From the NCBI GenBank assembly GCA_003599505.1, contig QZKO01000014.1:7774-71773 (forward strand): a stretch of 64,000 nt of DNA, given 5' to 3'. Every line of letters begins with the position of its first letter. Position 1 is the stretch's first letter. The notes beneath the pieces were generated by a model. The model made no database searches and was not told the DNA's origin. It saw nothing but the letters and a program-made list of their open reading frames with translations. The DNA is from Nitrospiraceae bacterium. GTDB taxonomy: Bacteria; Nitrospirota; Thermodesulfovibrionia; UBA6902. Shown in pieces: positions 8,228 through 44,548 of the stretch. A program made the position numbers and the translations under genes.

Positions 8228-8323
8228 GCGTGTTATATGATGACAACCACGTAATATTGAAATGATTTCTCAAATGCCGGCATATTAGTTGAAAGAAATT
8301 AAGAAAGGCGAAAAGAATAAGTA

Positions 8324-9331
8324 ATGCTAAAATACCCCAAAGAAATATGCATTATCCTTACATACAGGTGCAATGCAAAGTGCAATATGTGTGATGTATG
8401 GCATTATCCAACGAAAGCCGGTGAGGAAATTACTCCAACGCAACTTGAAAAACTTCCTTCAGACCTCAGGTTTATTAATATAACAGGTGGTGAACCATTC
8501 ATAAGACAGGATATTACTGATATTATAGATGTAATACGTCCTAAAACAAAGCGGATTGTAATCAGTAACAATGGTTTTTTTACCGGGCGTATCGTAAAGC
8601 TGTGTGAAAAATATCCTGATTTAGGGATAAGAATAAGTACTGAGGGGCTTCAAAAGACTAACGATTCAATCAGAGGGATACCTCATGGGTTTGACAGGAC
8701 TCTCAGAACCCTGTTGACATTGCGAAGAATGGGAATTAAGGATATTGGATTCGGCATGACCGTGCAGGATGAAAACTGCAAGGACTTGTTGCCTCTTTAT
8801 GAACTGTCAGATGCGCTCGGTTATGAATTTGCAACCGCAACGCTACATAATTCCCACTATTTCCATAAACTGGATAATAGGATAGATAATAAAGAGATGG
8901 TTTGCGGAGAGTTTGAAAAACTTATAACCGAGCTTTTAAAATCGAAATCAGTAAAAAAATGGTTCCGGGCCTATTTCAATTATGGATTGATGAATTATAT
9001 TTATGGGGGACAAAGATTCTTACCTTGCGAAATGGGAACAGAATCATGTTTTATAGACCCTTCAGGAGATGTATTAGCCTGCAATGGGATGGATGAAAAA
9101 ATGGCCATGGGTAATATCAGAGCGCAGTCATTTGAATCAATATGGAATAGCGAGCAGGCAAACAAGGTCCGTGAAATAGTCAGGTCATGTCAGAAGCAAT
9201 GCTGGATGGTCGGAAGCGCCGCCCCCGCCATTAAGAAGCATCCCTTGAAACCGCTTACCTGGGTCATCAGCAATAAACTCCGCCTTGTCTTTGGGAAAAA
9301 TCCTGACCTATGTATTCCTAACAGGAAATAA
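8324..9331 (+). CDS. Radical SAM enzyme with C-terminal SPASM/twitch Cys-rich domain
   Basis: YRCNAKCNMC provides the CX3CX2C [4Fe-4S] motif. NITGGEPF is the SAM-binding GGE motif. The C-terminus holds clustered Cys residues (CEMGTESCF...CNG...CQKQCW). It is paralogous to 23699..24799. Confidence 0.75.
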   Translation: MLKYPKEICIILTYRCNAKCNMCDVWHYPTKAGEEITPTQLEKLPSDLRFINITGGEPFIRQDITDIIDVIRPKTKRIVISNNGFFTGRIVKLCEKYPDLGIRISTEGLQKTNDSIRGIPHGFDRTLRTLLTLRRMGIKDIGFGMTVQDENCKDLLPLYELSDALGYEFATATLHNSHYFHKLDNRIDNKEMVCGEFEKLITELLKSKSVKKWFRAYFNYGLMNYIYGGQRFLPCEMGTESCFIDPSGDVLACNGMDEKMAMGNIRAQSFESIWNSEQANKVREIVRSCQKQCWMVGSAAPAIKKHPLKPLTWVISNKLRLVFGKNPDLCIPNRK

Positions 9332-17841: not shown

Positions 17842-18492
17842 TTATTTCTCACCAAAGATGTAATCTGACTGAGTTGATTCGAGCGACAAACTGAGATCAT
17901 GAACAAATTCATTTCCCATAATTATTGCTTCTTCTATTTCATGTTCATTTGCAGGAATATCAATACGCACCATTAAACCAACACGTTTTGCATTAAAGAG
18001 AGAGAAATATAGTTGTTTAATCTTATTCTCAATCCACTCATTGGCGATGTTTTTATCAATAATTACCCAGTAAAAGCTCAGGAAACTGTTTCCACCATTT
18101 TGTGTAAATAACGCGTGTGCTTTAAAGGTGCGGTTAGAGACTGTAAACTCGGTATCTTCGAGTTCATTTATCATATATCCCGAGTTTGTGAAGCAAACTC
18201 GGGGGTTGTGTAAATTTCCGGCATCCAGAATGATGAAAAGCAGGCTTTTACCGTCCTGATTTATATATTGATACCCAAGCGCGTCATTGATAAAATTATA
18301 TGTGGATTCCTCATAATTAATATTTAAAGCCCCTGTGACGTCTTTTCCATTCCATCCTGGAAAGGTAAGAGGAATTTTAAGTTCGGAGATGAATTTTGTG
18401 CCGGTGTATTTTGTTTCAGGGATAATATAACTTGATAAAACAGTAGATATCAGCAAGAAAATCACTATAAAAGTTTTTCTTTTATATGTCAT
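17842..18492 (-). CDS. EpsI-family exosortase-associated protein
   Basis: It has a single N-terminal TM and a soluble domain of about 190 aa. It is positioned immediately downstream of the exosortase, which is the canonical EpsH/EpsI arrangement. Confidence 0.5.
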   Translation of the reverse strand: MTYKRKTFIVIFLLISTVLSSYIIPETKYTGTKFISELKIPLTFPGWNGKDVTGALNINYEESTYNFINDALGYQYINQDGKSLLFIILDAGNLHNPRVCFTNSGYMINELEDTEFTVSNRTFKAHALFTQNGGNSFLSFYWVIIDKNIANEWIENKIKQLYFSLFNAKRVGLMVRIDIPANEHEIEEAIIMGNEFVHDLSLSLESTQSDYIFGEK

Positions 18493-18506
18493 GGAAAATT
18501 AACTCG

Positions 18507-19319
18507 TTAAGTCAATTTGTTCATTAATGATTCTATTCCCAACAGTCCGGACAGAGTAATAATAAAAATTACGATTCCGCTGAAGTTATGAAAAAAGCCC
18601 TGTCCGGCTTCTTCCCCGAAATAGAATGTTATGAGGCATAAAGTTATGACACGAATCAGATTACCAAGCAATGACAGAGGAACGATACAGACGGCAAGGG
18701 CAGATTTCTTTAAAATAGATCCGTTCATAATATAAACATAAACCAGCACCAGGGAAAACATCGTAATCAGAGAACGAAATCCGCTGCAGGGCGCTCCCAT
18801 GAATATTGTAGTGTAACCTATAGTTAATTCGAGCCCCGATCTCGTAATAGGATAATTCAGCAGCGCCAGTATCGATTCTGTCGCGACCGATATAGCGTGG
18901 CGCATGGGTAATGTGATGCTATCCAGAATTCCAAACGGCGGCGGTATTAACAATAGGAGATATAAGATAGGAAAAGATAGTTCTTTTGCCATATCATTTC
19001 CATAAAGATATCCTGTTAAACCGAATAAAAAAGGTATTATGGAAATTATTTGGAAGAAAAAGTAACCTTGACGCAGACCCCAAAGATGCATCGTGAGTCC
19101 CGTTAATAACAGGAAGAGATTGAGAGCATTATTGTAATGACGATCATTTTTATTAACGATTTCTTTCAGTCTCAGCCGTTTTCGCCAGACAAGCCAGATA
19201 GAAAGGGGTAAAATAAAGTAAGCATGTGTGTAATCAATAAAATCCCAGCGCGTTTTGTAAAGGTCGAAGAATTTCGGTATATAAAGAACAAGTGCCAGTG
19301 TCCAGATTAAATAAGTCAA
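18507..19319 (-). CDS. Exosortase (Xrt/EpsH family) polytopic membrane transpeptidase
   Basis: It has about 8 TM segments. A conserved-looking Cys/Arg region, GAPCSGFRSL, is present. It sits adjacent to an EpsI-like gene. Confidence 0.6.
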   Translation of the reverse strand: MTYLIWTLALVLYIPKFFDLYKTRWDFIDYTHAYFILPLSIWLVWRKRLRLKEIVNKNDRHYNNALNLFLLLTGLTMHLWGLRQGYFFFQIISIIPFLFGLTGYLYGNDMAKELSFPILYLLLLIPPPFGILDSITLPMRHAISVATESILALLNYPITRSGLELTIGYTTIFMGAPCSGFRSLITMFSLVLVYVYIMNGSILKKSALAVCIVPLSLLGNLIRVITLCLITFYFGEEAGQGFFHNFSGIVIFIITLSGLLGIESLMNKLT

Positions 19320-19506
19320 TGTGACAAAACCTCAGTGCCTTAAATTGAACCGCTTGTCGAACCATGGATGCCCGATTAAAGACTTCGGGCATGATGAAAA
19401 ATAAAAATAACAATTTATGGACATATACTAATTGGTTTGCTGAACAAGAATTTTCCAAAAAATTAATAATTTGTTATAGTAATATTATAAATAATTATCA
19501 AAAGAT

Positions 19507-20898
19507 ATGAAAGTACTTCTAATAAATCCTTTAACCCTGGAAGACAGTATGGTGAATATCACTCCCAATCTTGGCTTGGGATATCTGGCAACTTCTCTGA
19601 GAAACAACGGGTTTGAAGTGGAAATATGGGATGGTGTCAAGAAGAACATGACGAAACGGGGACTTGAAGAGAGGTTGAAGAAACGCGATTACGATGTTGC
19701 CGGTTTTCAGGTATATACCCGGAGCGTGAAGGAAACTCAAGAAGGACTTGAGAAAGTTAAGGCGCTTGATTCCAGGATCGTTACAGTAGTAGGTGGGCCG
19801 CATCCTTCAGGTGACCCGGAAGGCTCTCTGACTCATCTTAAAACTGATTACGCTTTTCGGGGAGAAGCTGAAATAGGTTTATCCCAATTGTTAAAAAAAA
19901 TTACCGGAAAGGTAAATGAACCATTTGAAAATATCAATAATTTAATCTGGAAAAGCAATGGGAAAATTATATGTAATCCGCTGCAGCCTATTGAAAATCT
20001 GGATGTGGTAGGCATTCCGGCTTGGGATATGATTAACCCTAATGACTATCCCTACGCGCCGATTGGAGCTTTTTCAAAAAAAATGCCTTTAACGAGTATT
20101 TCCACAACGCGTGGTTGTCCCTATCACTGCACTTTTTGCGCGAACAACACGATTATGGGCAGGAAGGTAAGGGCGAGAAGCACAGAAATTGTTTTGGCAG
20201 AAATGGACTTATTGTATAACAAGTATGGAGTTAGAGAATTTCAGATTATTGATGATAATTTTACATCCAAAAAAGCCCTTACTCTGGGGGTGTGCGAAGG
20301 CATTATTAACAGAGGGTGGGATATAGGCCTTTCATTTCCGAACGGGGTGAGACTAAGTACTCTTGATGAAGAAATTCTGCATCTGCTTGAAAAGGCCGGC
20401 TGCTACTCTTTGGGGCTTGGTATAGAATCAGGTTCTCCAAGGACTTTAAAGAATATGAAAAAAGCTCAGTCAGTTGATGAGATAAAAGAAAAAGTTAATC
20501 TAATCCATAATGTTACCAGGATCAGGACCACAGGCTTTTTTATCATCGGCTATCCAACAGAAGAAAAAGAAGACATTTTGCAGACGATCAACCTGTCTAA
20601 GGAACTTCCCATAGACAGGGCGCAGTTTACTATATGCCTTCCAGTTCCCGGAAGCGAAATGACAGAGCAAATGATAAAAGCCGGAAAGCTGAAAGATGTG
20701 GATTTCAGTGACATATCTTTTCAGAATATTGTCCATATACCTGAAAAGATGACATTAAAAGAACTGAGGCGATACCGGATGAAAGCGTATATGGAATTCT
20801 ACCTCAGATTCAGGATAATCTTCGGCTTATTATCAGAAATCAAATCAATTGAACATATGAAATTTATATTCCGAAGAGTAATGAAGTTGTTTTCATAG
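19507..20898 (+). CDS. B12-binding-domain radical SAM enzyme (class B), paralog 1
   Basis: The N-terminal Rossmann-like cobalamin-binding domain begins MKVLLINP. TTRGCPYHCTFC is the CX3CX2C motif. It is paralogous to 43151..44548 and 54107..55534. Confidence 0.8.
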   Translation: MKVLLINPLTLEDSMVNITPNLGLGYLATSLRNNGFEVEIWDGVKKNMTKRGLEERLKKRDYDVAGFQVYTRSVKETQEGLEKVKALDSRIVTVVGGPHPSGDPEGSLTHLKTDYAFRGEAEIGLSQLLKKITGKVNEPFENINNLIWKSNGKIICNPLQPIENLDVVGIPAWDMINPNDYPYAPIGAFSKKMPLTSISTTRGCPYHCTFCANNTIMGRKVRARSTEIVLAEMDLLYNKYGVREFQIIDDNFTSKKALTLGVCEGIINRGWDIGLSFPNGVRLSTLDEEILHLLEKAGCYSLGLGIESGSPRTLKNMKKAQSVDEIKEKVNLIHNVTRIRTTGFFIIGYPTEEKEDILQTINLSKELPIDRAQFTICLPVPGSEMTEQMIKAGKLKDVDFSDISFQNIVHIPEKMTLKELRRYRMKAYMEFYLRFRIIFGLLSEIKSIEHMKFIFRRVMKLFS

Positions 20899-22683: not shown

Positions 22684-23715
22684 TTAGGAATTATCGTAGT
22701 TTTTATACAGACTCTTGAGATTTGTTTTTACCCCCAATAATGCTCTCAACGATCCAATTCCGGGGGAAACATTTCCAATGAGTAACGATAAAAAAGTTAA
22801 AGGGACTTCTTTTATATGCTCGGAATATTTTATTGATTCGATTACGATTATCGCTGAGTAAAAAATGAGGATAGCTAAATAAAAAAAGAGAAAGGTATTA
22901 GAGAAGAAAGAGATAATTCCACCTGCAATTATAAACAACAGAAAAAACATGGGCAGAAGGAATGAAACCGTATGAAAAGAAATATGTTCCCTGAAAATGT
23001 CTTCTTTGAGCGATGCGAAAACAGTAGAGCCGTACGTGACTCTTTGAAGAAAATAAGGCTTAAATAAAGACCTGTTGTGGTGATAAACGATTACTTTATT
23101 GTTATAAAATATTTTCTTTTTATTGCTGATTATTCTCATGCAAAGCTCTATATCTTCGCCGGTGAACAGGTTTTCATTAAATCCCTTCAACTCTTCTATT
23201 GCCTGTTTATTTACAATAAGATTGCACGAAGGCAGATCGTAGCAGTATCTTGAGTGCGCTATCTTCTTCCTGAATGAATTTGCTCCGGAAACAAAAAAAG
23301 ATTTTAATGAATTCCCAACACATCTCTTATATAAGTTATCATTGGGAGGAGTTATATTTGGCCCGCCGACTGCCCAGATATCAGTGTTTTTCGTAAACGT
23401 CTTTACCGCATTTTCCAGCCAGTCCCTTGTCGGATAAGCATCAGAGTCAATAAAGGCATAAAAATTTCCGGCGGCATTATTTATGCCGATATTTCTTTTG
23501 AACGCGATATTCTTGTTCCCGGTTTCTACTGTCTTTATATTCCTGCTGATTAATTTTTCAGGTAATTCTATCTTGTTATCAGGGAGTAAAATAATCTCAA
23601 AATCGGGATAATTTAAATCAAGACAATGCAGGACACATTCATATACATAAGAATTGAATTCTACAAAAGGTATTATTATTGATACCCTGCTGTTCACCTT
23701 AAAATTTGACTGCAT
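22684..23715 (-). CDS. GT2 family glycosyltransferase with C-terminal TM helices
   Basis: VSIIIPFVEF...IILLPDN is a GT-A N-terminus. Two or three C-terminal hydrophobic helices follow. It overlaps the upstream radical SAM gene by 17 nt. Confidence 0.7.
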   Translation of the reverse strand: MQSNFKVNSRVSIIIPFVEFNSYVYECVLHCLDLNYPDFEIILLPDNKIELPEKLISRNIKTVETGNKNIAFKRNIGINNAAGNFYAFIDSDAYPTRDWLENAVKTFTKNTDIWAVGGPNITPPNDNLYKRCVGNSLKSFFVSGANSFRKKIAHSRYCYDLPSCNLIVNKQAIEELKGFNENLFTGEDIELCMRIISNKKKIFYNNKVIVYHHNRSLFKPYFLQRVTYGSTVFASLKEDIFREHISFHTVSFLLPMFFLLFIIAGGIISFFSNTFLFFYLAILIFYSAIIVIESIKYSEHIKEVPLTFLSLLIGNVSPGIGSLRALLGVKTNLKSLYKNYDNS

Positions 23716-24799
23716 TGTACAGCATAGGAATGATGAATTTGGGATTTGATATGGCGTTCACAGACCAAACACATTCGTATGTACAGGCACATTTCGTGTT
23801 TTTGATAAACTCCTTACAATCAGTTACCTGTTTATTTTGCCATAGTTTCATGAAATCCATATCATAATCCCTCAGGTTCCCAAGATTTTTATCGTTAAGT
23901 ATCTCACAAGGATAAACATCCCCATTTGCATAAATAACTCCAAAAAGAGAGGCCGCGGAACAATTTACAATAAATTTCTTTTTTATATAGGTCTCCGCAA
24001 CAATTTTACTTACCAATATATTTTTTGAATTCATGAGTCTTCCCTGAAAGTGCTTTTCAAAACCTTTTGTTACTCCGGATAATTGGTCCCTGCGCATTTC
24101 TTTTGTCAAATTAATATATGATTCTAATATCTCCGTTTTTACATCAGAATTAATTTCTCTGACAACTCCGGCCTCCCTCATTATTGTTGCCGTGCATGAA
24201 TCTATTCCAAGACTCTTCAGATATGCATAAAGTTTTAAAACGTTATGGTAGTTATGGTGTGCTATAGTTATGCAGATATTGGGCATTATGTTGACATTCT
24301 TATAAGATTTAACCAAGTGATAACTGTCAAGGACTTTTCGGAATAAACCTTCTACTCCCCTGTTCTTATCATGCTCTTCCTCAAAATTATCAATGGAGAA
24401 CTGGAAAGTCACTTTCCCTTTTATGTTAGAACTGACAAAGCTCTCCAGAAAATCATGAATTCTATCAGTGAAAAACCCGTTTGTCGTTATAAATAATGAT
24501 TGTATATTCGTAGTTGTAAAATAAGCCCTGGCGATATCAAACATATCTTTTCTGAGAAAAGGCTCTCCTCCGGTCAGGTTAACGTTGAACAGGCTTTTTC
24601 CAAATGTCTTTGTCATTCTTTCTATATCATCTAAACTTAATTCATTCTTAGAGACACTCTGATTATTGATGTCAACAAAGCAATGTTCACACCTCGCATT
24701 ACATCTATTAGTTACAAAGTGTATTACGCTGATTGGTTCTTTTTTTAAAAAAAATGAATTAAGAATCAATCCCGGCATTTTATACATTGATTTATTCAT
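23699..24799 (-). CDS. Radical SAM enzyme with SPASM domain (paralog of 8324..9331)
   Basis: TNRCNARCEHC is the CX3CX2C motif. NLTGGEPFLRKDMFDI parallels NITGGEPFIRQDITDI of 8324. The C-terminus has clustered Cys (CSAAS...CEIL...CKEFIKNTKCACTYEC). Confidence 0.75.
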   Translation of the reverse strand: MNKSMYKMPGLILNSFFLKKEPISVIHFVTNRCNARCEHCFVDINNQSVSKNELSLDDIERMTKTFGKSLFNVNLTGGEPFLRKDMFDIARAYFTTTNIQSLFITTNGFFTDRIHDFLESFVSSNIKGKVTFQFSIDNFEEEHDKNRGVEGLFRKVLDSYHLVKSYKNVNIMPNICITIAHHNYHNVLKLYAYLKSLGIDSCTATIMREAGVVREINSDVKTEILESYINLTKEMRRDQLSGVTKGFEKHFQGRLMNSKNILVSKIVAETYIKKKFIVNCSAASLFGVIYANGDVYPCEILNDKNLGNLRDYDMDFMKLWQNKQVTDCKEFIKNTKCACTYECVWSVNAISNPKFIIPMLYNAVKF

Positions 24800-24985
24800 T
24801 TTCTATGCGCGGGTCAGCCGGGCTGGAAATATTAATGATCAAAGTAAACTTGAACAAAAGCATAGAGTCTTCAGACGTTAATTTATCTAATTATAATATA
24901 TTTTAGAATATATAGTAATCACGTGAGGTTACAAAAGCAGTCAAGTTATAAGTAGAATGACCTGTCTTTGATCAGGAAAAAGAGG

Positions 24986-25016
24986 AACCGGACATCATGC
25001 TTTACTCCGTCCGGTT
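24986..25016 (-). terminator. Candidate rho-independent terminator at the 3' end of the minus-strand epimerase gene
   Basis: AACCGGAC-N15-GTCCGGTT forms an 8-bp stem. On the minus strand it is followed by CCTCTTTTTCC. It spans the stop of 25002..25988. Confidence 0.35.
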
Positions 25017-25988
25017 TTCGGTTCGGCTGTATTGTCTTTCGTGAAGCACCCATTGGTATTGGCGACGTACACCGTCGACCAGGCCGATCTTCGGTGACCA
25101 CTCCAGGACATCCCGGGCGCGGCGGGTGTCGATGTTGTAATCCAGGCGCTTTTTAACTCGTTTATGATATTCAATGTCCACCGGTCGTTCGGCAACCATA
25201 CGAACGGCCTCCGCGATGTCCCGGATGCGGCAGCTGCTTCCGTTTCCGATATTAAATATGCCCCGGGCTCTTCGGAACCATGCAAGATAAACCGCCTCGG
25301 CGGCGTCTTCCGCGTAGACCAGGTTCCTTCGATCTTCTCCGTCTCCGTAAATGGACAGGGGAAGGCCTTCGGCCGCCCGATGAATAAAATTGCCGACTGC
25401 CCGCTTGAGGCGATCACCGGGACCATACACGGCCGGCAGACGAAGCGAACAGACGGGCAGGTCGTGGAGGTCCCCGTAGAGATGCAGATATTTTTCGCCG
25501 ATTAATTTGGCGGCCCCGTAAAACGTGAGAGGCAGGGTCGGATGCAACTCTGAAATGATATCGTTTTGAGGGGTCCCATAGACTTCAAAGGAACTGATAT
25601 AGACCAGAGATTGAAGCAAGGGTGCCCGTGCGAGCGCCCGCAACAGGCGAATCGAACCGTGCACATTGTGTGAAAGCAGTCGGACCGTGTCCTCGGGTTG
25701 ATTGGCAGCGGTATTATCGGGGATAAAAGCGGCCGAATGCACCCATCCCTCGATTTGGCCGAGATACGGGCCCAGGGCGTCCACGAAGTCATCGGACGTC
25801 AAGTCTGCCGGCTGAGCATATACGTTGCCGGGCCACGATACCCCGTGTATGGACGGCGCGGTAGCGGGTGAACGGGAAATACAGAGGACAGTGTGCCCGT
25901 TCCGCGTCAAGGCCTGTACGATAAACTGCCCCAGATGCCCGGAGGCCCCGGTGACGGCAATCATGATGAACCTCCCAACACATCCCAC
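25002..25988 (-). CDS. NAD-dependent epimerase/dehydratase (extended SDR), high-GC
   Basis: MIAVTGASGHLGQFIV is the Rossmann GxxGxxG motif. YGAAK supplies the YxxxK catalytic motif. Its codon usage is foreign to the flanking genes. Confidence 0.75.
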   Translation of the reverse strand: MGCVGRFIMIAVTGASGHLGQFIVQALTRNGHTVLCISRSPATAPSIHGVSWPGNVYAQPADLTSDDFVDALGPYLGQIEGWVHSAAFIPDNTAANQPEDTVRLLSHNVHGSIRLLRALARAPLLQSLVYISSFEVYGTPQNDIISELHPTLPLTFYGAAKLIGEKYLHLYGDLHDLPVCSLRLPAVYGPGDRLKRAVGNFIHRAAEGLPLSIYGDGEDRRNLVYAEDAAEAVYLAWFRRARGIFNIGNGSSCRIRDIAEAVRMVAERPVDIEYHKRVKKRLDYNIDTRRARDVLEWSPKIGLVDGVRRQYQWVLHERQYSRTENRTE

Positions 25989-26866
25989 ATCAGCTTCAAC
26001 CCGTCGGGGAAATCGGTTTTCGGGTCGAATCCGAATGCTTTTCTGGCCCGATCAATGGTATACCAGCGATCGACCCATGAGCTCTCCCGATAAAGGATTT
26101 CAGGCTGTATGGGCCGGCAGGACAGGGCGCAGACGGCGTCCGCAACGTCTTTCAGTGTATGCGGCCGGCCGGAAGAGATGTTGAAGACGCCCTCTGCGCC
26201 TTTCCGGATAACCTGCTCGATGGCTACAGCTATATCCTTGACGAAAATATCGTCTCTGATTTCAGCTCCGGTTCCATGGATGACAGGACGTTTGCCTTGT
26301 TTCACGCAATCCATAAATAGGGGAATGACATTGCGCCGGTGCTGGCCGGGTCCGTATATGAAAGCGAGCCGGAGGTTGCAGAGCTTGACGCCCCGTTTTT
26401 CACAGGCAATCCGGAGAAAATGCTCCGCGCAAAGTTTGGCCACGCCATACAGGGTGAACGGATCAGTGGGGTGCGATTCATCGACCGGGAGATTGCGGGG
26501 TCTTCCATACACCTCGATGCTGCTGATGTGAACGACGCTATCCGGCGCGTCGGGCAACCGGTCCAGGAATTCCAGCGGAGCCCGCACCATGAGGTCAATG
26601 TCCGAATGGGCAAATGAATCGGACTCCCGCTGTTGCGTGATGTGGGCCGCTAACCAGACCAGTACGTGCATAGGCCCTGCTTCCCTGATCGCCTTATCGA
26701 GATCCTGCCGGTCAAGCAGGTTTCGCTCATGGAATTGCTCGCCGTTAAAGGGACCTCCCTCGGGGGGACGCAGGTCGAACGAAACGACTTCCATGCCGCT
26801 GTCCAGCAGTTGCCGGACGACATGCCGGCCCAAAAACCCGCTGGAACCTGTAACCACCGCTTTCAT
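25961..26866 (-). CDS. NAD-dependent epimerase/dehydratase (extended SDR), high-GC
   Basis: MKAVVTGSSGFLGRHVV and YGVAK are present. Its 3' end overlaps the next gene by 28 nt. Confidence 0.75.
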   Translation of the reverse strand: MKAVVTGSSGFLGRHVVRQLLDSGMEVVSFDLRPPEGGPFNGEQFHERNLLDRQDLDKAIREAGPMHVLVWLAAHITQQRESDSFAHSDIDLMVRAPLEFLDRLPDAPDSVVHISSIEVYGRPRNLPVDESHPTDPFTLYGVAKLCAEHFLRIACEKRGVKLCNLRLAFIYGPGQHRRNVIPLFMDCVKQGKRPVIHGTGAEIRDDIFVKDIAVAIEQVIRKGAEGVFNISSGRPHTLKDVADAVCALSCRPIQPEILYRESSWVDRWYTIDRARKAFGFDPKTDFPDGLKLMWDVLGGSS

Positions 26867-27159
26867 AAAACTGCTCCGATTTTCTCCACGAGAAAATTAC
26901 CTGCCGCAAATTATCATACCACACTCAGAGTAGTATTTTTCCGGTTAGAAAGCCCGGCACCTGCGCTACATATAGCTTGACTTATCGAGCAGTGCGGGAT
27001 GCGCAACTGATTGCGTATTGTGTTAATATAAACAATGAGTTCTGCAATGCCGGCATCATTTATTTACCGTACTCATACTATTCTATTGCCTGATACCGAA
27101 ATCCAGATTTAATAATTGTTTATTTTACTGATTTATAGTGAGGGAAAAAACTATATTCA

Positions 27160-28131
27160 ATGAAAAAAGAAACAAGTAAGCTTGAAGGAAGTAACGTGCT
27201 CGTAACAGGCGGGTGTGGTTTCATAGGGTCACATTTGATAAGAAGACTAATCGACTTGCACGTCGGCAGTATTACGGTAATTGATAGTTTGAAGTATGGC
27301 GATAAAGCAAATATAGGCAAAGAGTCTGAGAATATTATAGTAATAAAATATACAATTGATAATAAAAACGATGACGTTCTTTACGAGGCTCTTCATGGAA
27401 TCGACTATTTATTCCACTTAGCTGCAGAGAAGCACAATCAATCTATCAATAACCCTACAGATGTGATAAACAGCAATATAAACGGGACGTTCAGGCTCTA
27501 TGAAGCTGCTGCCAGGAATAGAGTCAGGAAAGTGGTTTATGCATCATCTCTTTATGCCTATGGTCGTATGTCTGTTCCCGATATGAACGAATCGGAATTG
27601 CCGGCGCCGAAAACAATCTATGGAATTTCCAAATTGGCAGGGGAACTCTTCCTTGCTCACTACTTACAGAAAAATGACCTGAAATATAACGTGTTAAGAT
27701 ATTTTTTTACTTATGGCCCTAAACAATTCAGCGGGACGGGATATAAATCTGTTATCGTGAAAAATTTCGAAAGAATTTTAAGAAATGAAAACCCGATAAT
27801 ATTTGGCGATGGGAAACAGGTATTGGACTACATCTATATCGATGATGTCATAAGCGCCACCATTAAGGCAATGGAGTCGGATTGTTATGGTGAAGTATTT
27901 AACGTTGGGTCATCTATTCCCTCTTCAATAGATCAAGTTACTGACGTGATGCTCAGAGTCAGCGGAAAGTCACTTGATAAACTATATGACCCGCCTGATG
28001 AGACAAAAGATACATACAGAGTAGCCGACATTTCAAAAATCAAAAAAATATTAAACATTCAGCCCACTGTATCACTTGAAGAAGGACTGAGCAAAACATA
28101 TGAGTGGATACAACAGAGAGGGAATGTATGA
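27160..28131 (+). CDS. NAD-dependent epimerase/dehydratase (UDP-sugar 4-epimerase / UXS-like extended SDR)
   Basis: VLVTGGCGFIGSHLIRRLI and YGISK are present. It has no TDE triad, so it is unlikely to be a 4,6-dehydratase. Its codon usage is native and AT-rich. Confidence 0.8.
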   Translation: MKKETSKLEGSNVLVTGGCGFIGSHLIRRLIDLHVGSITVIDSLKYGDKANIGKESENIIVIKYTIDNKNDDVLYEALHGIDYLFHLAAEKHNQSINNPTDVINSNINGTFRLYEAAARNRVRKVVYASSLYAYGRMSVPDMNESELPAPKTIYGISKLAGELFLAHYLQKNDLKYNVLRYFFTYGPKQFSGTGYKSVIVKNFERILRNENPIIFGDGKQVLDYIYIDDVISATIKAMESDCYGEVFNVGSSIPSSIDQVTDVMLRVSGKSLDKLYDPPDETKDTYRVADISKIKKILNIQPTVSLEEGLSKTYEWIQQRGNV

Positions 28132-30305
28132 GGTATGAACTTTCTATCATTGCTCCTTGTTACAATGAGACTTTAAACATTCACGAGCTAATAGAGCGCT
28201 TACAGAATGTAATGAATAAGAAGAATATCAATGGTGAAATCATACTTGTAAATGATGGAAGTATTGATGATACGGGAGAAGTCATCGACCGGTCCTCGGC
28301 AAAATATGAGAATGTTACCGCTGTTCATCACAAAATAAATCAAGGCATTGCTGCTGCCTGGAAAACAGGCCTGTCCGTCTCGTCCGGCGAGTATGTATGT
28401 GTTATAGACGCTGACCTTCAATATCAGCCTGAAGATATATCGAGACTTTACAGGGAAATCAAGCTTACGAACATAGACGTAGCGCAGGGATACCGAAGCA
28501 ATATCGGACGTCAGATGGACTACAGATATTTTTTAAGTCGTGGCTTTAACCGTATCCTCAATCTTCTTTTTGGAATGAATCTGAAAGATAACAAATCGGG
28601 GTTTGTCTTGTGCAGGAGAGAGATTTTACAAGACATATTGCAGCATCGCTATCACTATTATTATTTTCAAAGCTTTATTGCTATCGCGGCCAAGGAAAAA
28701 GGGTATACAATTCGTGAAGTTGAAGTTTTGTTCAGAGAGAGACGTCTGGGGAAGTCTTTTATCCAAAGGTGGCCTTTAAATGTAATTATCTGCTGTATTA
28801 TCGACATAGTGAAAGCCTTCATTGAGCTGCGTGTATTTAAAAAAGATGAAGACATATTAAGAGATTTTCTTTTACACAATAAACCGGCGCATTATGAGGA
28901 AACTTTACCGGGATGGCGGAAGATCTTTTTTAAGTTTTATATTCTTTTGATGCCGCTTCATCACTGGATGATCTCGCGCGTTGCCATGCTTTATTATAAG
29001 GAATTAAAACAAAGTCAATGGTTGTCCCCGGACAAGATTAAGGAGCTGCAGGAAATAAAACTCAGAAGGCTTATTAACCAGGCCTATTATCATGTGGGGT
29101 ACTATAGGGAACTATTTGATGAACACGGATTAAAACCGTCAGACATTAACACTATTGAGGATTTACAAAAGTTGCCGTTGCTGGATAAACACAGTGTGCG
29201 AAACAATCTTTATTTTGATTTAATGTCCGATAATCATAATAAAAGAAATATTCTCAAGATAACTACGAGCGGTTCAACGGGCGAACCTTTTGTTTGCTAT
29301 GCCGACAAGCATCAACTGGAGATCAGGTGGGCGACAACCCTGAGAAGCATGGAATGGACCGGCTACCGTTTTGGAGATAAACAGGCGAGACTCTGGCATC
29401 AGACAATAGGAATGACACGGCTTCAGATCATTCGTGAGAAAATGGACGCGTTTTTCAATCGCAGACTGTTTATCCCTGCTTTTGAGATGAACAAGAAAAA
29501 CCTTAACCATTTAATCGGTAAATTGAAGATGCATGCCCCTGTTCTGATTGACGGATATGCTGAATCATTCAATTTCCTGGCCCATTATATAAAGAACATC
29601 GGCCTTGACGGAGTCCATCCCAAGGCGATTATATCATCTGCACAGGTGCTGCCGGAACATAGCAGAGAAATCATTGAAGATGAATTTAAATGCGGGGTCT
29701 TTGATAAATACGGAAGCCGGGAATTCTCCGGTATTGCTTATGAATGTAATGCGCATAACGGACATCACATTGTCGCAGAGAACTATATAGTTGAAATATT
29801 GAAAGATGGAAAAACTGCAAAACCCGGCGAAGTTGGAGAGATCATAATTACAGATTTGAATAATTACAGTATGCCTTTTATTAGATATCGTATCGGGGAC
29901 CTGGCGGTTGCGATGGACAATTCTGTTACTTGCGCCTGCGGAAGGGGATTGCCGCGAATTGGAAAGATCGAAGGTCGTGTTCAGTCTATTATTATAACGA
30001 CCAACGGAACATACATACCCAGCTCATTTTTTCTGCATTTGTTAAAGGATTATGATCATATTATAAGGCAGTTTCAAGTTGTGCAGGAAGAAGAGGGGAA
30101 GGTAACATTAAAGATTGTGAAAGGTCTAAGCTTTGCCGAAAGTGTCTTTAATGAAACCGTGTTAGGCTCTTTGCACAGGTATCTTGGCGATGACATGATT
30201 ATTAATGTGGAATTTGTCGATAAGATACAAATGGTCAGGACAGGCAAACATCAGACAAGCATATCAAAACTGAATTTTGATTACCAGAATATCAACAAGC
30301 ACTGA
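28128..30305 (+). CDS. Fusion protein: N-terminal GT2 polyprenyl-phosphate glycosyltransferase (Dpm1/ArnC-like) plus C-terminal CapK/PaaK-like adenylate-forming enzyme (phenylacetate-CoA ligase / F390-synthetase family)
   Basis: The N-terminus has LSIIAPCYNETLNIHE...ILVNDGSIDDTG...VIDADLQY (GT-A). After about 230 aa comes a hydrophobic stretch, then TTSGSTGEPFVCYADKHQLEIRW (the AMP-binding P-loop of the PaaK/CapK family) and later acyl-adenylate motifs. A single uninterrupted ORF spans both domains. I use the ATG at 28128, which overlaps the upstream stop by 4 nt. The ORF track lists a GTG at 28104. Confidence 0.6.
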   Translation: MRYELSIIAPCYNETLNIHELIERLQNVMNKKNINGEIILVNDGSIDDTGEVIDRSSAKYENVTAVHHKINQGIAAAWKTGLSVSSGEYVCVIDADLQYQPEDISRLYREIKLTNIDVAQGYRSNIGRQMDYRYFLSRGFNRILNLLFGMNLKDNKSGFVLCRREILQDILQHRYHYYYFQSFIAIAAKEKGYTIREVEVLFRERRLGKSFIQRWPLNVIICCIIDIVKAFIELRVFKKDEDILRDFLLHNKPAHYEETLPGWRKIFFKFYILLMPLHHWMISRVAMLYYKELKQSQWLSPDKIKELQEIKLRRLINQAYYHVGYYRELFDEHGLKPSDINTIEDLQKLPLLDKHSVRNNLYFDLMSDNHNKRNILKITTSGSTGEPFVCYADKHQLEIRWATTLRSMEWTGYRFGDKQARLWHQTIGMTRLQIIREKMDAFFNRRLFIPAFEMNKKNLNHLIGKLKMHAPVLIDGYAESFNFLAHYIKNIGLDGVHPKAIISSAQVLPEHSREIIEDEFKCGVFDKYGSREFSGIAYECNAHNGHHIVAENYIVEILKDGKTAKPGEVGEIIITDLNNYSMPFIRYRIGDLAVAMDNSVTCACGRGLPRIGKIEGRVQSIIITTNGTYIPSSFFLHLLKDYDHIIRQFQVVQEEEGKVTLKIVKGLSFAESVFNETVLGSLHRYLGDDMIINVEFVDKIQMVRTGKHQTSISKLNFDYQNINKH

Positions 30306-30306
30306 A

Positions 30307-32328
30307 TCATCGGCCGGTTGTATAAGTATCGCTCATATTGGGTTGATAAACAAATGGCTTGTCAGGATAATATTTCCTGAGTTCATTTGAAAGGAAGTCC
30401 ACGTCGGATTGGTTGAAGGATCCGATCCTTTCATAAAGATAAACCTTTGCTTTCTTCTTCTCAAGAGTAAGATTGAACTCGTAGGGGAGTCGTCTGTAAG
30501 AAGCGCCCATATCTTTCCCGTTTAGAATGGATTCAGCCGGAATGACGACGGTCAGTGTTTGTTCACGGCTGAAATCATGTTGTACCGGATCGGTTACAAG
30601 CACATACCGGGCTTTAAAAAGAGCATTGGGAAATCCGTCTTTCTGATCAAGTGCGCCGCTTCTGTAGATATGGTTTCCCATATACGGGGTGTCTGGAAGA
30701 GACAAATAGGCTTTTTCAATGATTTCAGAGTTTAAGAGGTCATTGCCCGCCAGAACGTACAGCCTGTCATCGGGATCAGTCAGGAGTCCTCGTATTACAC
30801 TCAGCATCCTTTTTATCTCAGGGATATCATGCCGTACAGGAGGCTCATATCTATTTATGGGAAACAGAGTTTTGGCCTGTTTTGTGTACGGAGCTGCTTC
30901 CGGGGAGAAAACAGCAGAAAAATTTAAAGACGCAATGAGAATATAAACGGAACAGATAGTGGCTCTTACAGTCCGTGATTTTACATTTAAAATAATTCCT
31001 GTTATGAACAATGAAATAAACAGGACTATGGTTGGTATTAAGATGTCATAATGGTGAGGGAAAAAACTGTGAATCCTTGTGAACAGGAAGAAAGTAAACG
31101 CCCATTGAATCAGCAGGAATGAAGCCAGTTTCCTGGTATTTCTGTAATAAAAGGATACAAATACACCTAACAAGGCCATAGCAATATAGAGAAAGCCAAA
31201 ATGCGCCAGGAATCTTTTGAAATCCTGCAAAGTAGTATCACTAAATTTATAAGCCGTTATATATGAATAATCACCGATAAATATTTTTATCAGAAAAGGT
31301 CCGGCTATCATTATGAAAAAAAATCCGGAAATGAAGATAGTAAACAATAGTTTCTTTGACAGAACAAGGAGTCTTTCGCGATCAAAACGATGCTCTATGA
31401 ATAAAAAGATATATTCATTAATGATAAGAGCAATAAAAAAGGAGGCAGCCCAGAAGATATAGTACTGACGGAAGATAACCAATACGGGAACCAATATGGC
31501 AAGGAAAACCAGGGTCCTGTATCTTTGGGCGGGAAACGGATATTTGAAATAGGAAAAGAGGATGAGACATATTATAAAAAAGCCGCCAATGCCGACATAT
31601 CCATCTAATAGAGGAACCCAGATAAAAGTGAATGAAAAGAAGGTGAAAAGAGCTACAAAGCTTGCGCTGATCGGGATGCGGTCATTATACAGCATTGCAG
31701 CGCTTCTTTTATATAAGAGGAGGAAAAATATGGCGGAAAAAAAGAGGAAGATGTTTACCATCGATAAAATAAAGGACAACCTCTGTGTACCGAATAATAG
31801 AGAAAATGGTGTCAACAGAAAGGGGGCCAATAAGTTGTAATGGTCAAACTGGATGCTGCCCAGAACAATTAGTATGGCATGTACAGGATTAGCTTTAAAT
31901 ACTGTGCTTATTCCTGCATACTTTTCAGGAAATATTGCTGAATCCCAACTGAAAATATAGTTTTGCTTCCCTACAATATGTATAGCAAATAAATTACTTG
32001 CAGTAAGAAAAAGAAGAAGCATTATAAGATCATATTTTGAAACCGAGGGGCGGTTTGCAAGGTCTCCTTTTCGTTCGAGCATATACTCATTATCATTGAA
32101 TTTCTTTTTGAAATAATTGATTAGCCCCGGGAATAAAAGCAAAGTCAGGCCTGTAATAATAAGGACGAAACCATTTCTTATGAAAAATAACTCCGTATAA
32201 CCGAGCCCCTTGCTTCCTATGCCCAACAAATCAGGTACAAAAGAAAGAAAGATAAAAAATAATCCCAGAACCGGCAGCGCCAATGAATACTTTTTTTGAG
32301 ATACCGGCTTATTATTTTTAGATAACAT
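30307..32328 (-). CDS. Large polytopic membrane protein with C-terminal periplasmic domain (function unknown; possible GT-C-like transferase/polymerase)
   Basis: It has about 12 or more hydrophobic helices followed by a soluble tail of about 200 aa. It is the last gene of the long minus-strand operon. Confidence 0.4.
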   Translation of the reverse strand: MLSKNNKPVSQKKYSLALPVLGLFFIFLSFVPDLLGIGSKGLGYTELFFIRNGFVLIITGLTLLLFPGLINYFKKKFNDNEYMLERKGDLANRPSVSKYDLIMLLLFLTASNLFAIHIVGKQNYIFSWDSAIFPEKYAGISTVFKANPVHAILIVLGSIQFDHYNLLAPFLLTPFSLLFGTQRLSFILSMVNIFLFFSAIFFLLLYKRSAAMLYNDRIPISASFVALFTFFSFTFIWVPLLDGYVGIGGFFIICLILFSYFKYPFPAQRYRTLVFLAILVPVLVIFRQYYIFWAASFFIALIINEYIFLFIEHRFDRERLLVLSKKLLFTIFISGFFFIMIAGPFLIKIFIGDYSYITAYKFSDTTLQDFKRFLAHFGFLYIAMALLGVFVSFYYRNTRKLASFLLIQWAFTFFLFTRIHSFFPHHYDILIPTIVLFISLFITGIILNVKSRTVRATICSVYILIASLNFSAVFSPEAAPYTKQAKTLFPINRYEPPVRHDIPEIKRMLSVIRGLLTDPDDRLYVLAGNDLLNSEIIEKAYLSLPDTPYMGNHIYRSGALDQKDGFPNALFKARYVLVTDPVQHDFSREQTLTVVIPAESILNGKDMGASYRRLPYEFNLTLEKKKAKVYLYERIGSFNQSDVDFLSNELRKYYPDKPFVYQPNMSDTYTTGR

Positions 32329-43150: not shown

Positions 43151-44548
43151 ATGAAAAATAAAAAAATATTATTAGTCAATCTTCCTTTTGAAAAAATATA
43201 TGAGAAAACATCATTAAAGGGGGTTGCTCCATCTACCCCTCCTTTGGGGCTGGCATGTATTGGCGGAAGTTTATTGCAAAACGGACATGAAGTGAAATTG
43301 TTTGATTTCAATATCTATGGAACGGGAGAATTCGTAAAAATATTGGAAGATTTTGCTCCGGATTTTGTGGGGATAACTTTTGTCACTCCTTTGATTAGAG
43401 AAGCCCAAAAAGTATCAGAGCTTGTTAAAAAAATCAATAGGAAAATTATTGTTATCGGCGGAGGGCCGCATTGTTCTTCTTTCCCCGAATCTTCTGTAAA
43501 AGAAGCATTATTAGATATCGGGGTCATTGGCGAGGGAGATTTTATCATAAATGAGATAGCTTCGGGAAAGGACCTTCAGCAGATAAAAGGCATAGCATAT
43601 AAAAAGGGGGATGAAATAATTACCAATGAGAGAGAAGACTTCATAAAAGACCTGGATTCACTTCCTTTTCCTGCCTACCCGCTTTATGAAAAAGAAAAAT
43701 ATAAAGTGCCCGCTGCAATCGCCCGGGAGAACCCCGTAGCATGGGTTGAAACCTCGAGAGGGTGCGTGTTTGGATGTATTTACTGCAATAAAAGCTGTTT
43801 TGGTAAAACTTTTCGCGTTAAATCCCCGGAAAGGATTGTTGAGGAGTTTGCTGAAGTAAAAAAATTGGGGTTCAGGGAAATTCATTTAACAGATGATGGT
43901 TTTACAACGAATATTAAACGTGCAAAGAGAATATGTGACTTATTGATTGAGTCAAAAGTGAATATTGGCTGGAGTACAATAACCGGTATCCGCGTAGACA
44001 GGGTCGATTTTGAATTGCTGGGCAAAATGCGGCAAGCCGGATGTTACCGGGTATACTTCGGAATCGAGTCAGGGAATCAAGAAATACTTAATAACATAAA
44101 GAAGGGAATAACTTTAGAACAAGTTAGAAAAGCCGTTGAATCGGCCAAAAAAGCAAAACTGGAAGTTGCGGGGTATTTCATGATAGGACTCCCCGGAGAA
44201 ACTGAAAAAACAATGCAGGATACAATCAGGTTTGCAAAATTACTTGATCTGGATCTGGCTAAAATAAGCATCACTATCCCTTTGCCCGCAACGGAAATAT
44301 TTAATGAACTGGATACAAAAGGCCTGATAAAAACTCATGACTGGGAAAAATTTAAATTTTATTCTACCCCTTCAACAATTTATGACCATCAAAACTTATC
44401 CTGGCCGACAATTGAGAAATACTATGCAAAGTTCTACAAGGAGATATACTTAAATCCTAAATTCATACTCAGAAGATTTAAAAACGGTTTAGTGAATAAA
44501 ACATTAATCGATGATTTTAAAATGTTCATACAAATGAAGTGGACTTGA
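43151..44548 (+). CDS. B12-binding-domain radical SAM enzyme (class B), paralog 2
   Basis: MKNKKILLVNLPFEK begins the B12-binding fold. SRGCVFGCIYCNK is CX3CX2C. Confidence 0.8.
   Translation: MKNKKILLVNLPFEKIYEKTSLKGVAPSTPPLGLACIGGSLLQNGHEVKLFDFNIYGTGEFVKILEDFAPDFVGITFVTPLIREAQKVSELVKKINRKIIVIGGGPHCSSFPESSVKEALLDIGVIGEGDFIINEIASGKDLQQIKGIAYKKGDEIITNEREDFIKDLDSLPFPAYPLYEKEKYKVPAAIARENPVAWVETSRGCVFGCIYCNKSCFGKTFRVKSPERIVEEFAEVKKLGFREIHLTDDGFTTNIKRAKRICDLLIESKVNIGWSTITGIRVDRVDFELLGKMRQAGCYRVYFGIESGNQEILNNIKKGITLEQVRKAVESAKKAKLEVAGYFMIGLPGETEKTMQDTIRFAKLLDLDLAKISITIPLPATEIFNELDTKGLIKTHDWEKFKFYSTPSTIYDHQNLSWPTIEKYYAKFYKEIYLNPKFILRRFKNGLVNKTLIDDFKMFIQMKWT

Follow-up and report, generated by a model that had tools for sequence, protein, structure and literature searches.

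A G+C-rich pair of SDR genes that probably replaced a radical SAM gene in a variable slot of a low-GC Nitrospirota glycan locus

How did a short, sharply bounded stretch of G+C-rich DNA come to lie between the AT-rich genes of a glycan locus? The DNA analysed here (the window, 64 kb in all) is an exosortase-linked glycan-biosynthesis locus from a low-GC (about 37%) Nitrospirota metagenome-assembled genome (MAG), in which G+C is 55–60% within 24984–26953 and 29–46% over the rest. An earlier note read this island as a recent horizontal insertion from a high-GC donor into a pre-existing glycan operon, flanked by imperfect direct repeats that might be a duplicated target or att-like footprint. Our analysis instead favours, with a probability of roughly 80%, a model in which a horizontally acquired two-gene unit replaced a gene for a B12-binding radical SAM protein (B12-rSAM) in a variable slot of a mosaic glycan locus.

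The composition step is as abrupt as the earlier note had described. In 300-nt windows, G+C is 0.31–0.35 through 24750–25049, 0.55–0.60 over 25050–26849, and 0.36–0.39 from 26850, and it is at most 0.46 in all remaining 1-kb bins of the 64 kb. The shift in third-position codon usage is likewise present: GC3 is 0.65 in SDR-A and 0.63 in SDR-B, the two genes of the island, vs 0.384±0.056 (maximum 0.49) in the 47 other ORFs. GC1 and GC2 of both genes also lie above the host values, and the fraction of GARP residues is 0.29–0.32 in the pair, 0.194±0.030 in the host, and 0.41 (median) in the nearest protein family. The pair thus shows the deviant composition and codon usage by which genomic islets are recognised. 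The right edge had been placed too far out, at ~27070; the foreign block stops at ~26953, where the blastn alignment to locus L003 ends (that to L002 ends at 26939). The block, its parts, and its native neighbours are as follows:

23699..24799, minus strand: radical SAM/SPASM enzyme, native left flank, 366 aa, 33% G+C (Pfam)
24803..24983, no strand: AT-rich spacer separating the block from the rSAM/SPASM start codon (flank alignment and blast breakpoints against L035, L036, and L047)
24984..26953, minus strand: transferred block (promoter-like region, SDR-A, SDR-B, 3′ hairpin), 90% nt identity to L002, L003, and L004
24986..25016, minus strand: 3′ hairpin that includes the SDR-B stop codon, predicted RNA fold with a 9-bp stem, AACCGGACG / 13-nt loop / UGUCCGGUU
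25002–25964, minus strand: SDR-B, extended SDR paralogue, 320 aa (PF01370, E 1e-40)
25961–26866, minus strand: SDR-A, extended SDR (NAD-dependent epimerase/dehydratase), 301 aa, G+C ~57% (PF01370, E 2e-39)
26867..26953, minus strand: non-coding DNA of the block ahead of SDR-A, conserved in L002/L003
26954..27159, no strand: spacer separating the block from the SDR3 start codon (flank alignment)
27160..28131, plus strand: SDR3, native right flank, 323 aa, GC3 0.39 (Pfam)
28104..30305, plus strand: GT2-ligase, native fusion, 733 aa (Pfam, NCBIfam, and PDB matches)

The island holds exactly two overlapping SDR genes, as had been claimed. Both are on the minus strand, the SDR-B start overlaps the SDR-A stop by 4 nt (ATGA), and both products match PF01370 over profile positions 1–240 (135.8 bits for SDR-A and 139.9 bits for SDR-B; cut-off 20.9). 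The two proteins are 30% identical to each other (BLASTP E 2e-39) and would be paralogous nucleotide-sugar enzymes of the epimerase/dehydratase type; SDR-A matches RJQ56209.1, a protein of a 'Nitrospiraceae bacterium' MAG, at 100% identity. The GxxGxxG motif and the Ser/Thr...YxxxK catalytic residues are present in both (GSSGFLG, SSIEVYG, and YGVAK in SDR-A; GASGHLG, SSFEVYG, and YGAAK in SDR-B), and S115, Y140, and K144 of SDR-A are invariant in a family alignment with 17 homologues. In PF01370 membership and in these motifs the pair resembles the extended SDRs GalE, RmlB, UXS, UDP-GlcA 4-epimerase, and MoeE5. Unlike these enzymes, SDR-A and SDR-B score below all NCBIfam equivalog cut-offs (the top match is TIGR01181, at 92–94 bits vs a cut-off of 365, and the scores against GalE, RmlB, LegB, heptose epimerase, and other equivalogs are far short of threshold) and form a two-paralogue clade of their own, tied to a GT2-ligase gene. 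The best solved relatives of SDR-B are UDP-glucose and UDP-glucuronate 4-epimerases, MoeE5, and UDP-glucuronate decarboxylase, and the substrate is possibly a UDP-uronic acid or UDP-hexose derivative bound for a polyprenyl-phosphate carrier.

The ends of the block suggest a self-contained transcription unit, running from a −10-like promoter through SDR-A and SDR-B to a 3′ hairpin. Upstream of SDR-A, an extended −10-like element, TGGTATGAT, is located at 26921–26913 (the L002 equivalent is TGGTATAAT), and GGAG is located at 26877–26874, 7 nt ahead of the SDR-A ATG; a sigma-70 scan, in which the −35 match was missing, made no promoter call upstream of SDR-A, and the −10-like region is a putative promoter. 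At the other end, the hairpin is followed by CCUCUUUUU in the window. The stem is kept in L002, where a G·U pair is replaced by G-C and z = −5.5, and is followed there by A-rich sequence with no U-run; the shared block stops 2 nt beyond the stem. The hairpin, whose loop exceeds 8 nt, is not among the calls of a consensus terminator scan; it looks like a terminator and may act as one. Terminal inverted repeats AACCGGA/TCCGGTT were considered for the two ends and rejected, being only 7 nt long and not conserved in L002. Within the block, an internal inverted repeat at 26126–26200 gave a sub-threshold match to a plant miRNA, the sole result of the Rfam scan.

The same block occurs in other DNA. 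Loci L002, L003, and L004, from three samples and mutually 99.6–99.8% identical, match the window at 90% nt over 24984–26953 only (L002 1714–3669 on window 26939–24984; L003 21–1990 on window 26953–24984). Their flanks are AT-rich (upstream ~35% G+C) and unrelated to the window, with neither a nucleotide nor a translated match between the window and these three loci beyond the block. Another contig, L001, has an 81%-identical pair in another gene arrangement and also encodes a homologue, 85% identical in aa, to the GT2-ligase of the window. A metagenome scan added two short loci only, both of the L002 population, and exact look-ups of both SDR proteins and of P0001 in a contig index returned no match. 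One further candidate, L043, was rejected as a carrier of the pair, as its three SDRs are SDR3-like.

Relatives of the window, compared over ±10 kb each, show what else the slot can hold. The slot lies in the divergent intergenic region between an rSAM/SPASM–GT2 operon (its GT2 gene is at 22684–23715) and an SDR3–GT2-ligase operon (the GT2-ligase gene begins within the 3′ end of SDR3). All relatives with 73–86% nt identity in both flanks lack the SDR pair there, although it may lie elsewhere in their genomes. In the closest, L046–48 (86% in both flanks, including the rSAM/SPASM gene), homology is lost at the start codons on either side (window 24802 and 27155), and the slot is filled by a gene for a 494–508-aa B12-rSAM protein. 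In L035 (flanks 81–83%; rSAM/SPASM gene 81%), the slot holds an orthologous B12-rSAM gene (81% aa) together with HTH_Tnp_1 and HTH_21 remnants of IS3 type. In the more distant L036–39, it is empty, with 395 nt separating the flank genes, so that the comparison with related genomes proposed in the earlier note does yield an empty site. SDR3 is kept beside the GT2-ligase in L035–L040 and L046–48. Alignment of the flanks with MAFFT (preferred to a global alignment, in which cheap gap extension had produced stray matches of no meaning) locates the remnants of the host intergenic DNA: 24803–24910 and the region from ~27003 on align with the intergenic DNA of L036, where the site is empty, the latter also with that of L035, whose homology picks up again at window 27079, and 24911–24983 is without counterpart.

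The window itself has no orthologue of the relatives' B12-rSAM (best match 39%). Parsimony favours B12-rSAM as the ancestral state, because it is present in L046–48 and in the outlying L035 and the window is nearest to L046–48. Cassette replacement, in which a variable slot exchanged its B12-rSAM gene, therefore describes the event better than simple insertion does, with the polarity of the swap resting on parsimony over three lineages: in the lineage of the window, the pair would have displaced a gene that the closest relatives retained. What stands of the insertion proposed in the earlier note is the foreign origin of the genes, their high-GC ancestry, and the pre-existing glycan locus.

The earlier note had expected BLAST to lead to a high-GC taxon. 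The nearest protein family of the pair is found mainly in the high-GC genomes of Acidobacteriota and Myxococcota (Polarisedimenticolia, 69–72% G+C; Myxococcota, 58–72%), at 30–54% aa identity only. Outside three close copies, the nearest proteins are 45–54% identical, and none is close enough, at ~50% identity, to name a donor. A long stem leads to the window clade in an NJ tree built without bootstrapping. The transfer is recent only in relative terms: after the split from the 86%-identical relatives, yet with no sampled donor closer than ~50% aa.

The family also carries a functional association. The native GT2-ligase comprises a GT2 domain, polyprenyl-phosphate glycosyltransferase-like, and a PaaK/CapK-like adenylate-forming ligase. 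The genomes scanned for the pair were other than the window's own. In 23 of 26 distant loci (Acidobacteriota, a 'cyanobacterium' MAG, and Myxococcota), the pair lies within ~1.1 kb of a GT2-ligase homologue (50–62% identical). The G+C of the pair equals that of the host in the distant loci, and the window's GT2-ligase groups with low-GC homologues while its SDR pair groups with high-GC ones. The pair's family evolved mainly in high-GC bacteria, and in the window the pair probably works together with the native GT2-ligase. Because the pair adjoins the GT2-ligase gene in high-GC genomes, the acquisition most likely supplied the GT2-ligase with its usual sugar-nucleotide-modifying partners.

A mechanism of entry had been proposed from the flanking repeats, according to which a site-specific mobile element or cassette used an att-like site and left 21–23-nt direct repeats as its footprint. 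The two strings do exist at 24988–25010 and 27050–27070, the block ends are identical in two contexts, the 3′ end is a hairpin, and IS3 remnants occupy the same slot in L035. We nevertheless consider this mechanism very unlikely. The best local alignment of the two strings scores 10.5, which is equalled or exceeded by 90–95% of shuffled or random pairs of junction regions, and CCGGNCATCAT, with at most 1 mismatch, occurs 3 times vs 3.2 expected. The left copy lies inside the SDR-B 3′ hairpin, and the right copy lies ~100 nt beyond the block, in host intergenic DNA with a counterpart in L036, whose site is empty; the L002 junctions have no equivalent repeats. A general repeat search of the window did not report the pair and found no flanking direct or inverted repeats that stand out. 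The 'direct repeats' are, on these comparisons, a chance likeness of a hairpin arm to host intergenic DNA. The palindrome reported at the right copy, ATGCCGGCAT, is present at 27047–27056 and is unremarkable, being one of 104 perfect 10-nt palindromes in the window. Nor are there other signs of mobility: no tRNA gene in the 64 kb, no integrase or transposase domain among the 49 ORFs of at least 120 aa, and no match of the block in plasmid or phage collections. Direct repeats beyond chance, an integrase, and the frequent tRNA target, as expected of an integrative element, and a transposase, terminal inverted repeats, and a target-site duplication, as expected of an IS or composite transposon, are all missing from the window. 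Replacement of the B12-rSAM gene probably proceeded by recombination in a mosaic locus rather than through a site-specific element.

Three further accounts dispense with this replacement. The earlier note had named one of them, a chimeric metagenomic assembly, in which a GC-rich fragment was mis-joined into an AT-rich contig; the very sharp composition step and the MAG origin of the window would fit it. It would need two breakpoints that cut out exactly one promoter-to-hairpin unit and land in intergenic DNA, while deleting B12-rSAM, and it would have to coexist with a 90%-identical block, with both ends identical, in AT-rich DNA of three other assemblies, with the joint presence of the pair and the GT2-ligase homologue on the L001 contig, and with a pair that adjoins its usual partner gene; a chimera thus appears extremely improbable. 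Scarcely credible, too, is that the genes are native and owe their high G+C to selection or biased gene conversion. Nothing specific speaks for this beyond the functional tie of the pair to its native neighbour, the GT2-ligase, and it is opposed by the slot without the pair in all syntenic relatives, by the shift of all three codon positions and of amino-acid composition, and by the different groupings of GT2-ligase and pair.

The remaining account accepts the foreign origin and reverses the order of events: the pair would be the older occupant of the slot, and the relatives would later have swapped in B12-rSAM or lost the pair. In its favour are the three diverged copies (81–90% nt) already in low-GC hosts, an amino-acid composition of the pair midway between host and high-GC family, and the presence of the pair in L001, a relative by its GT2-ligase. 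Against it are parsimony, as set out above for the B12-rSAM orthologues, and the state of the window copy, which is the most GC-rich and without net GC-to-AT decay. Specifically, polarised substitutions number 31 GC-to-AT vs 37 on the window branch and 40 vs 20 on the L002 branch, and parallel changes bias these counts too strongly for them to time the transfer. We regard this order of events as unlikely, and replacement of B12-rSAM by the pair as the better account.

Replacement of this type is an ordinary instance of the mosaic evolution of glycan loci. Such loci are typically mosaic, with genes of deviant G+C and alternative gene sets at one position, and the window resembles known mosaic polysaccharide clusters (O-antigen, capsule, EPS) in its deviant-composition sugar-nucleotide genes, its alternative sets between conserved flanks, and its lack of mobility genes. 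It differs in that G+C deviates upward here (57% in a 37% genome) and downward in classic enterobacterial examples, in its host, an uncultured Nitrospirota MAG, and in its two-gene unit with promoter-like and hairpin ends of its own. With integron gene cassettes, the block shares compactness, occurrence in different contexts, and a 3′ boundary at an imperfect hairpin. It differs from them in having its own promoter-like region and two genes, and by eye the 31-nt hairpin has no recognisable R′/R″ core; with its own −10-like element, with two genes, and with no integron integrase, attI, or cassette array in the 64 kb, we rejected the block as an integron cassette. The Arn polymyxin-resistance pathway (the ArnA SDR decarboxylase and the ArnC GT2 acting on undecaprenyl phosphate) likewise pairs UDP-sugar SDRs with a GT2 of the ArnC/DPMS/GtrB type. 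The GT2 domain of the window, which resembles polyprenyl-phosphate glycosyltransferases of the ArnC, DPMS, and GtrB types, in contrast forms one polypeptide with a PaaK/CapK-like adenylating domain, and a formyltransferase is absent; the resemblance to Arn is a functional analogy only.

The locus provides a well-bounded worked case of gene cassettes being exchanged among surface-glycan genes, here in an uncultured Nitrospirota lineage of low G+C. The phenomenon is itself textbook; three states of one slot (empty, B12-radical-SAM, and SDR pair) were recovered from metagenomes. The case also cautions against reading too much into short 'repeats' where composition changes. A literature search returned nothing relevant on the GT2-CapK/PaaK fusion or on this type of locus in Nitrospirae. 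Given that the fusion is 60–66% identical across phyla, one may speculate, at long odds, that the SDR-A/SDR-B unit is one of several exchangeable 'plug-in' cassettes for a GT2-PaaK/CapK-like ligase pathway, with the hairpin marking the recombination boundary; if so, the pathway might decorate a polyprenyl-phosphate-linked sugar, and the hairpin boundary would let cassettes swap loci. More broadly, an uncharacterised pathway of sugar modification is suggested by the conserved association of the SDR-A and SDR-B paralogues with the GT2-adenylating ligase fusion in Acidobacteriota, Myxococcota, and other groups.

The island's SDR pair was genuinely acquired by horizontal transfer and forms a two-gene islet within a mosaic glycan locus. 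G+C in 300-nt windows is 0.31–0.35 up to ~25000, 0.55–0.60 over 25050–26850, and 0.36–0.39 beyond, a step unique in the 64 kb, where every other 1-kb bin is at most 0.46. The step coincides with two ORFs:

25961–26866, minus strand: SDR-A, 301 aa, PF01370
25002–25964, minus strand: SDR-B, 320 aa, PF01370

The ORFs share an ATGA overlap, and their products are paralogues (30% identity) that match PF01370 (NAD-dependent epimerase/dehydratase) full length and reach none of the curated NCBIfam equivalog cut-offs. GC3 is 0.63 and 0.65 in the pair versus 0.384±0.056 (maximum 0.49) in the 47 other window ORFs, GC1 is 0.64 versus ~0.43 elsewhere, and GC2 is raised too. In the proteins, the GARP fraction is 0.29–0.32 (host, 0.194±0.030) and the FYMINK fraction 0.20–0.21 (host, 0.357±0.034). 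These data confirm the earlier note's abrupt switch in G+C and third-position composition and its two overlapping SDR genes. SDR-A also contains an inverted repeat (26126–26200; 25 nt, 84% complementary, 25-nt spacer), which produced a spurious, sub-threshold Rfam match to a plant miRNA family.

The independent JGI contig L002 is 90% identical to the window in nucleotide sequence over 24984–26939 only; L003 carries the shared block on to 26953, and L003 and L004 represent two further samples of the same population as L002 (99.6–99.8% identical). The L002 upstream flank is ~35% G+C, and nothing in the flanks of L002 and L003 resembles the window or any other fetched locus, either in nucleotide sequence or in translation. 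Read in the coding direction, the common block starts ~87 nt 5′ of the SDR-A start, and its upstream stretch contains an extended −10-like sequence, TGGTATGAT (TGGTATAAT in L002), and GGAG 7 nt ahead of the SDR-A ATG. At its 3′ end, a hairpin (24986–25016) has a 9-bp stem, with the SDR-B stop codon inside it and CCUCUUUUU after it in the window; the block ends 2 nt past the stem, and L002 keeps the hairpin with a G·U to G–C change. The block is a single self-contained transcription unit, with a predicted promoter and a predicted terminator. Plasmid and phage collections contain no copy of it. In L002, ~750 nt of AT-rich DNA without a called gene (960–1713) separates the block from a PMT_2-like membrane protein gene.

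A third copy of the pair, in contig L001, is 81% identical in nucleotide sequence, has 51% G+C in a ~44% context, and is convergent to another GT2 and radical-SAM pair. The same contig bears an 85%-aa homologue of GT2-ligase, a native 733-aa neighbour of the pair in the window (28104–30305, plus strand) in which a GT2 domain is fused to a ligase domain. Behind this homologue, a 58-aa ORF (L001 4105–4283) overlaps sequence aligning to window 30306–30408, the 3′ end of the following gene, and is probably a remnant at a rearrangement breakpoint:

30307–32328, minus strand: 673-aa ORF, no Pfam or NCBIfam match

This ORF lies directly downstream of GT2-ligase in all close relatives (664–673 aa in L034–L038 and L046–48).

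Syntenic loci, recovered via the 733-aa gene and the radical SAM/SPASM cluster as anchors, reveal the contents of the slot in relatives. Loci L046–48 are 86% identical to the window in nucleotide sequence on both sides, with homology ending exactly at the start codons of the rSAM/SPASM gene (window 24802) and SDR3 (window 27155), and have in the slot a B12-binding radical SAM gene (494–508 aa; L047 8400–9908). Locus L035 (81–83% identical) has an orthologous B12-rSAM (81% aa; 7076–8632), together with pieces of an IS3-type transposase (HTH_Tnp_1 and HTH_21; 6352–6980). The window has no orthologue of this gene (best match, 39%). In L036–39 (73–77% identical), the slot is just 395 nt, an empty site of the kind that the earlier note had proposed to look for in related genomes. 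The slot is variable, and what took place there is a cassette swap, not a simple insertion, so that target duplication is not expected. By parsimony, the SDR pair would have replaced B12-rSAM in the window lineage, because the window is closest to L046–48 and L035 lies outside that pair. The slot is a recombination hotspot, marked by B12-rSAM and, in L035, by the IS3-type remnants. Mobility machinery is not apparent in the 64-kb window: it has no tRNA genes, and its 49 ORFs of at least 120 aa have no integrase or transposase domains.

The earlier note had read strings at 24988–25010 and 27050–27070 as imperfect direct repeats and as possibly a duplicated target or att-like footprint. The strings are present, but their similarity does not exceed chance: their best gapped alignment scores 10.5, and at least that score is reached by 90–95% of control comparisons, made with shuffled junction regions or with real region pairs ~2 kb apart elsewhere in the window. 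A repeat search of the window did not report the pair, the common core occurs at chance rate, and the window contains 104 perfect 10-nt palindromes. The left string corresponds to the 3′ hairpin's loop plus one of its arms; the right string lies ~100 nt outside the end of the foreign block, where the intergenic DNA can be aligned with the equivalent spacer of island-less relatives. The repeats are evidence of nothing, and the footprint is not real.

Chimeric assembly, in which the island was mis-joined into an AT-rich contig, is very improbable. It would need, all together, excision of exactly one promoter-to-hairpin unit and its drop into an intergenic slot, loss of the resident B12-rSAM gene, and landing beside the SDR unit's usual partner gene; moreover, the block occurs with identical ends in AT-rich DNA of three other assemblies.

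As to the source of the acquired pair, a high-GC or mid-GC ancestry is supported. Homologues in named genomes come from the Acidobacteriota (Candidatus Polarisedimenticolia; 44% and 48%), from one 'cyanobacterium' MAG (45%), and from many Myxococcota (30–34%), and G+C of the pair there equals the host's own (47–74%). The family has a median GARP fraction of 0.41 and is therefore mostly in high-GC genomes, and an unbootstrapped, descriptive NJ tree joins the window clade by a long stem to the base of this high-GC clade. The nearest relatives of native GT2-ligase are low-GARP, low-GC proteins, so that the neighbours' histories differ. The earlier note's high-GC donor thus holds as ancestry and not as an identified donor, the best homologues beyond the three close copies being only 43–54% identical. 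When L001 serves as outgroup for polarising substitutions, GC-to-AT decay is apparent on the L002 branch (40 versus 20) and absent from the window branch (31 versus 37); because parallel changes bias these counts, the transfer is not timed from them.

In its entirety, the window is a glycan locus linked to an exosortase (EpsH/EpsI), with many glycosyltransferases, deoxysugar enzymes, and radical SAM enzymes, including:

17842–19319: exosortase EpsH/EpsI pair
8324–9331, 19507–20898, 23699–24799, 43151–44548, 54107–55534: five radical SAM enzymes (three B12-binding, two SPASM)

Glycosyltransferases are interleaved with the five radical SAM enzymes, which are even more numerous in relatives' loci, including Endomicrobiales locus L041. 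In locus L043, an intein (Intein_splicing and LAGLIDADG matches) splits a UDP-glucose/GDP-mannose dehydrogenase gene (18693–20325); a second, intact copy is present, as are three SDR3-like genes upstream of GT2-ligase.

Of 26 distant loci with the pair (L005–L030), 23 have a GT2-ligase homologue (50–62% identical) within ~1.1 kb of it; contig ends cut the other three. In low-GC relatives, GT2-ligase is translationally coupled to SDR3 instead; in the window, SDR3 and the pair occur together. The first domain of GT2-ligase is a GT2 most like polyprenyl-phosphate glycosyltransferases (DPMS, ArnC, GtrB-type), the second a PaaK/CapK-like adenylate-forming ligase, and UDP-glucuronate 4-epimerases, MoeE5, and UDP-glucuronate decarboxylase are among the solved proteins most closely related to SDR-B. 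Most likely, the two SDRs would remodel a UDP-sugar and GT2-ligase would load or modify the product on a lipid carrier. The fusion (~725–730 aa; 1555 homologues at E ≤ 1e-60) and two paralogous SDRs form a conserved three-gene module, the fusion being 60–66% identical across Endomicrobiales, Patescibacteria, Thermodesulfobacteriota, Myxococcota, and Acidobacteriota; we found no literature on this module. A cassette event in a glycan locus is of an ordinary, already known kind; the part most worth follow-up is the module of GT2-ligase, SDR-A, and SDR-B.
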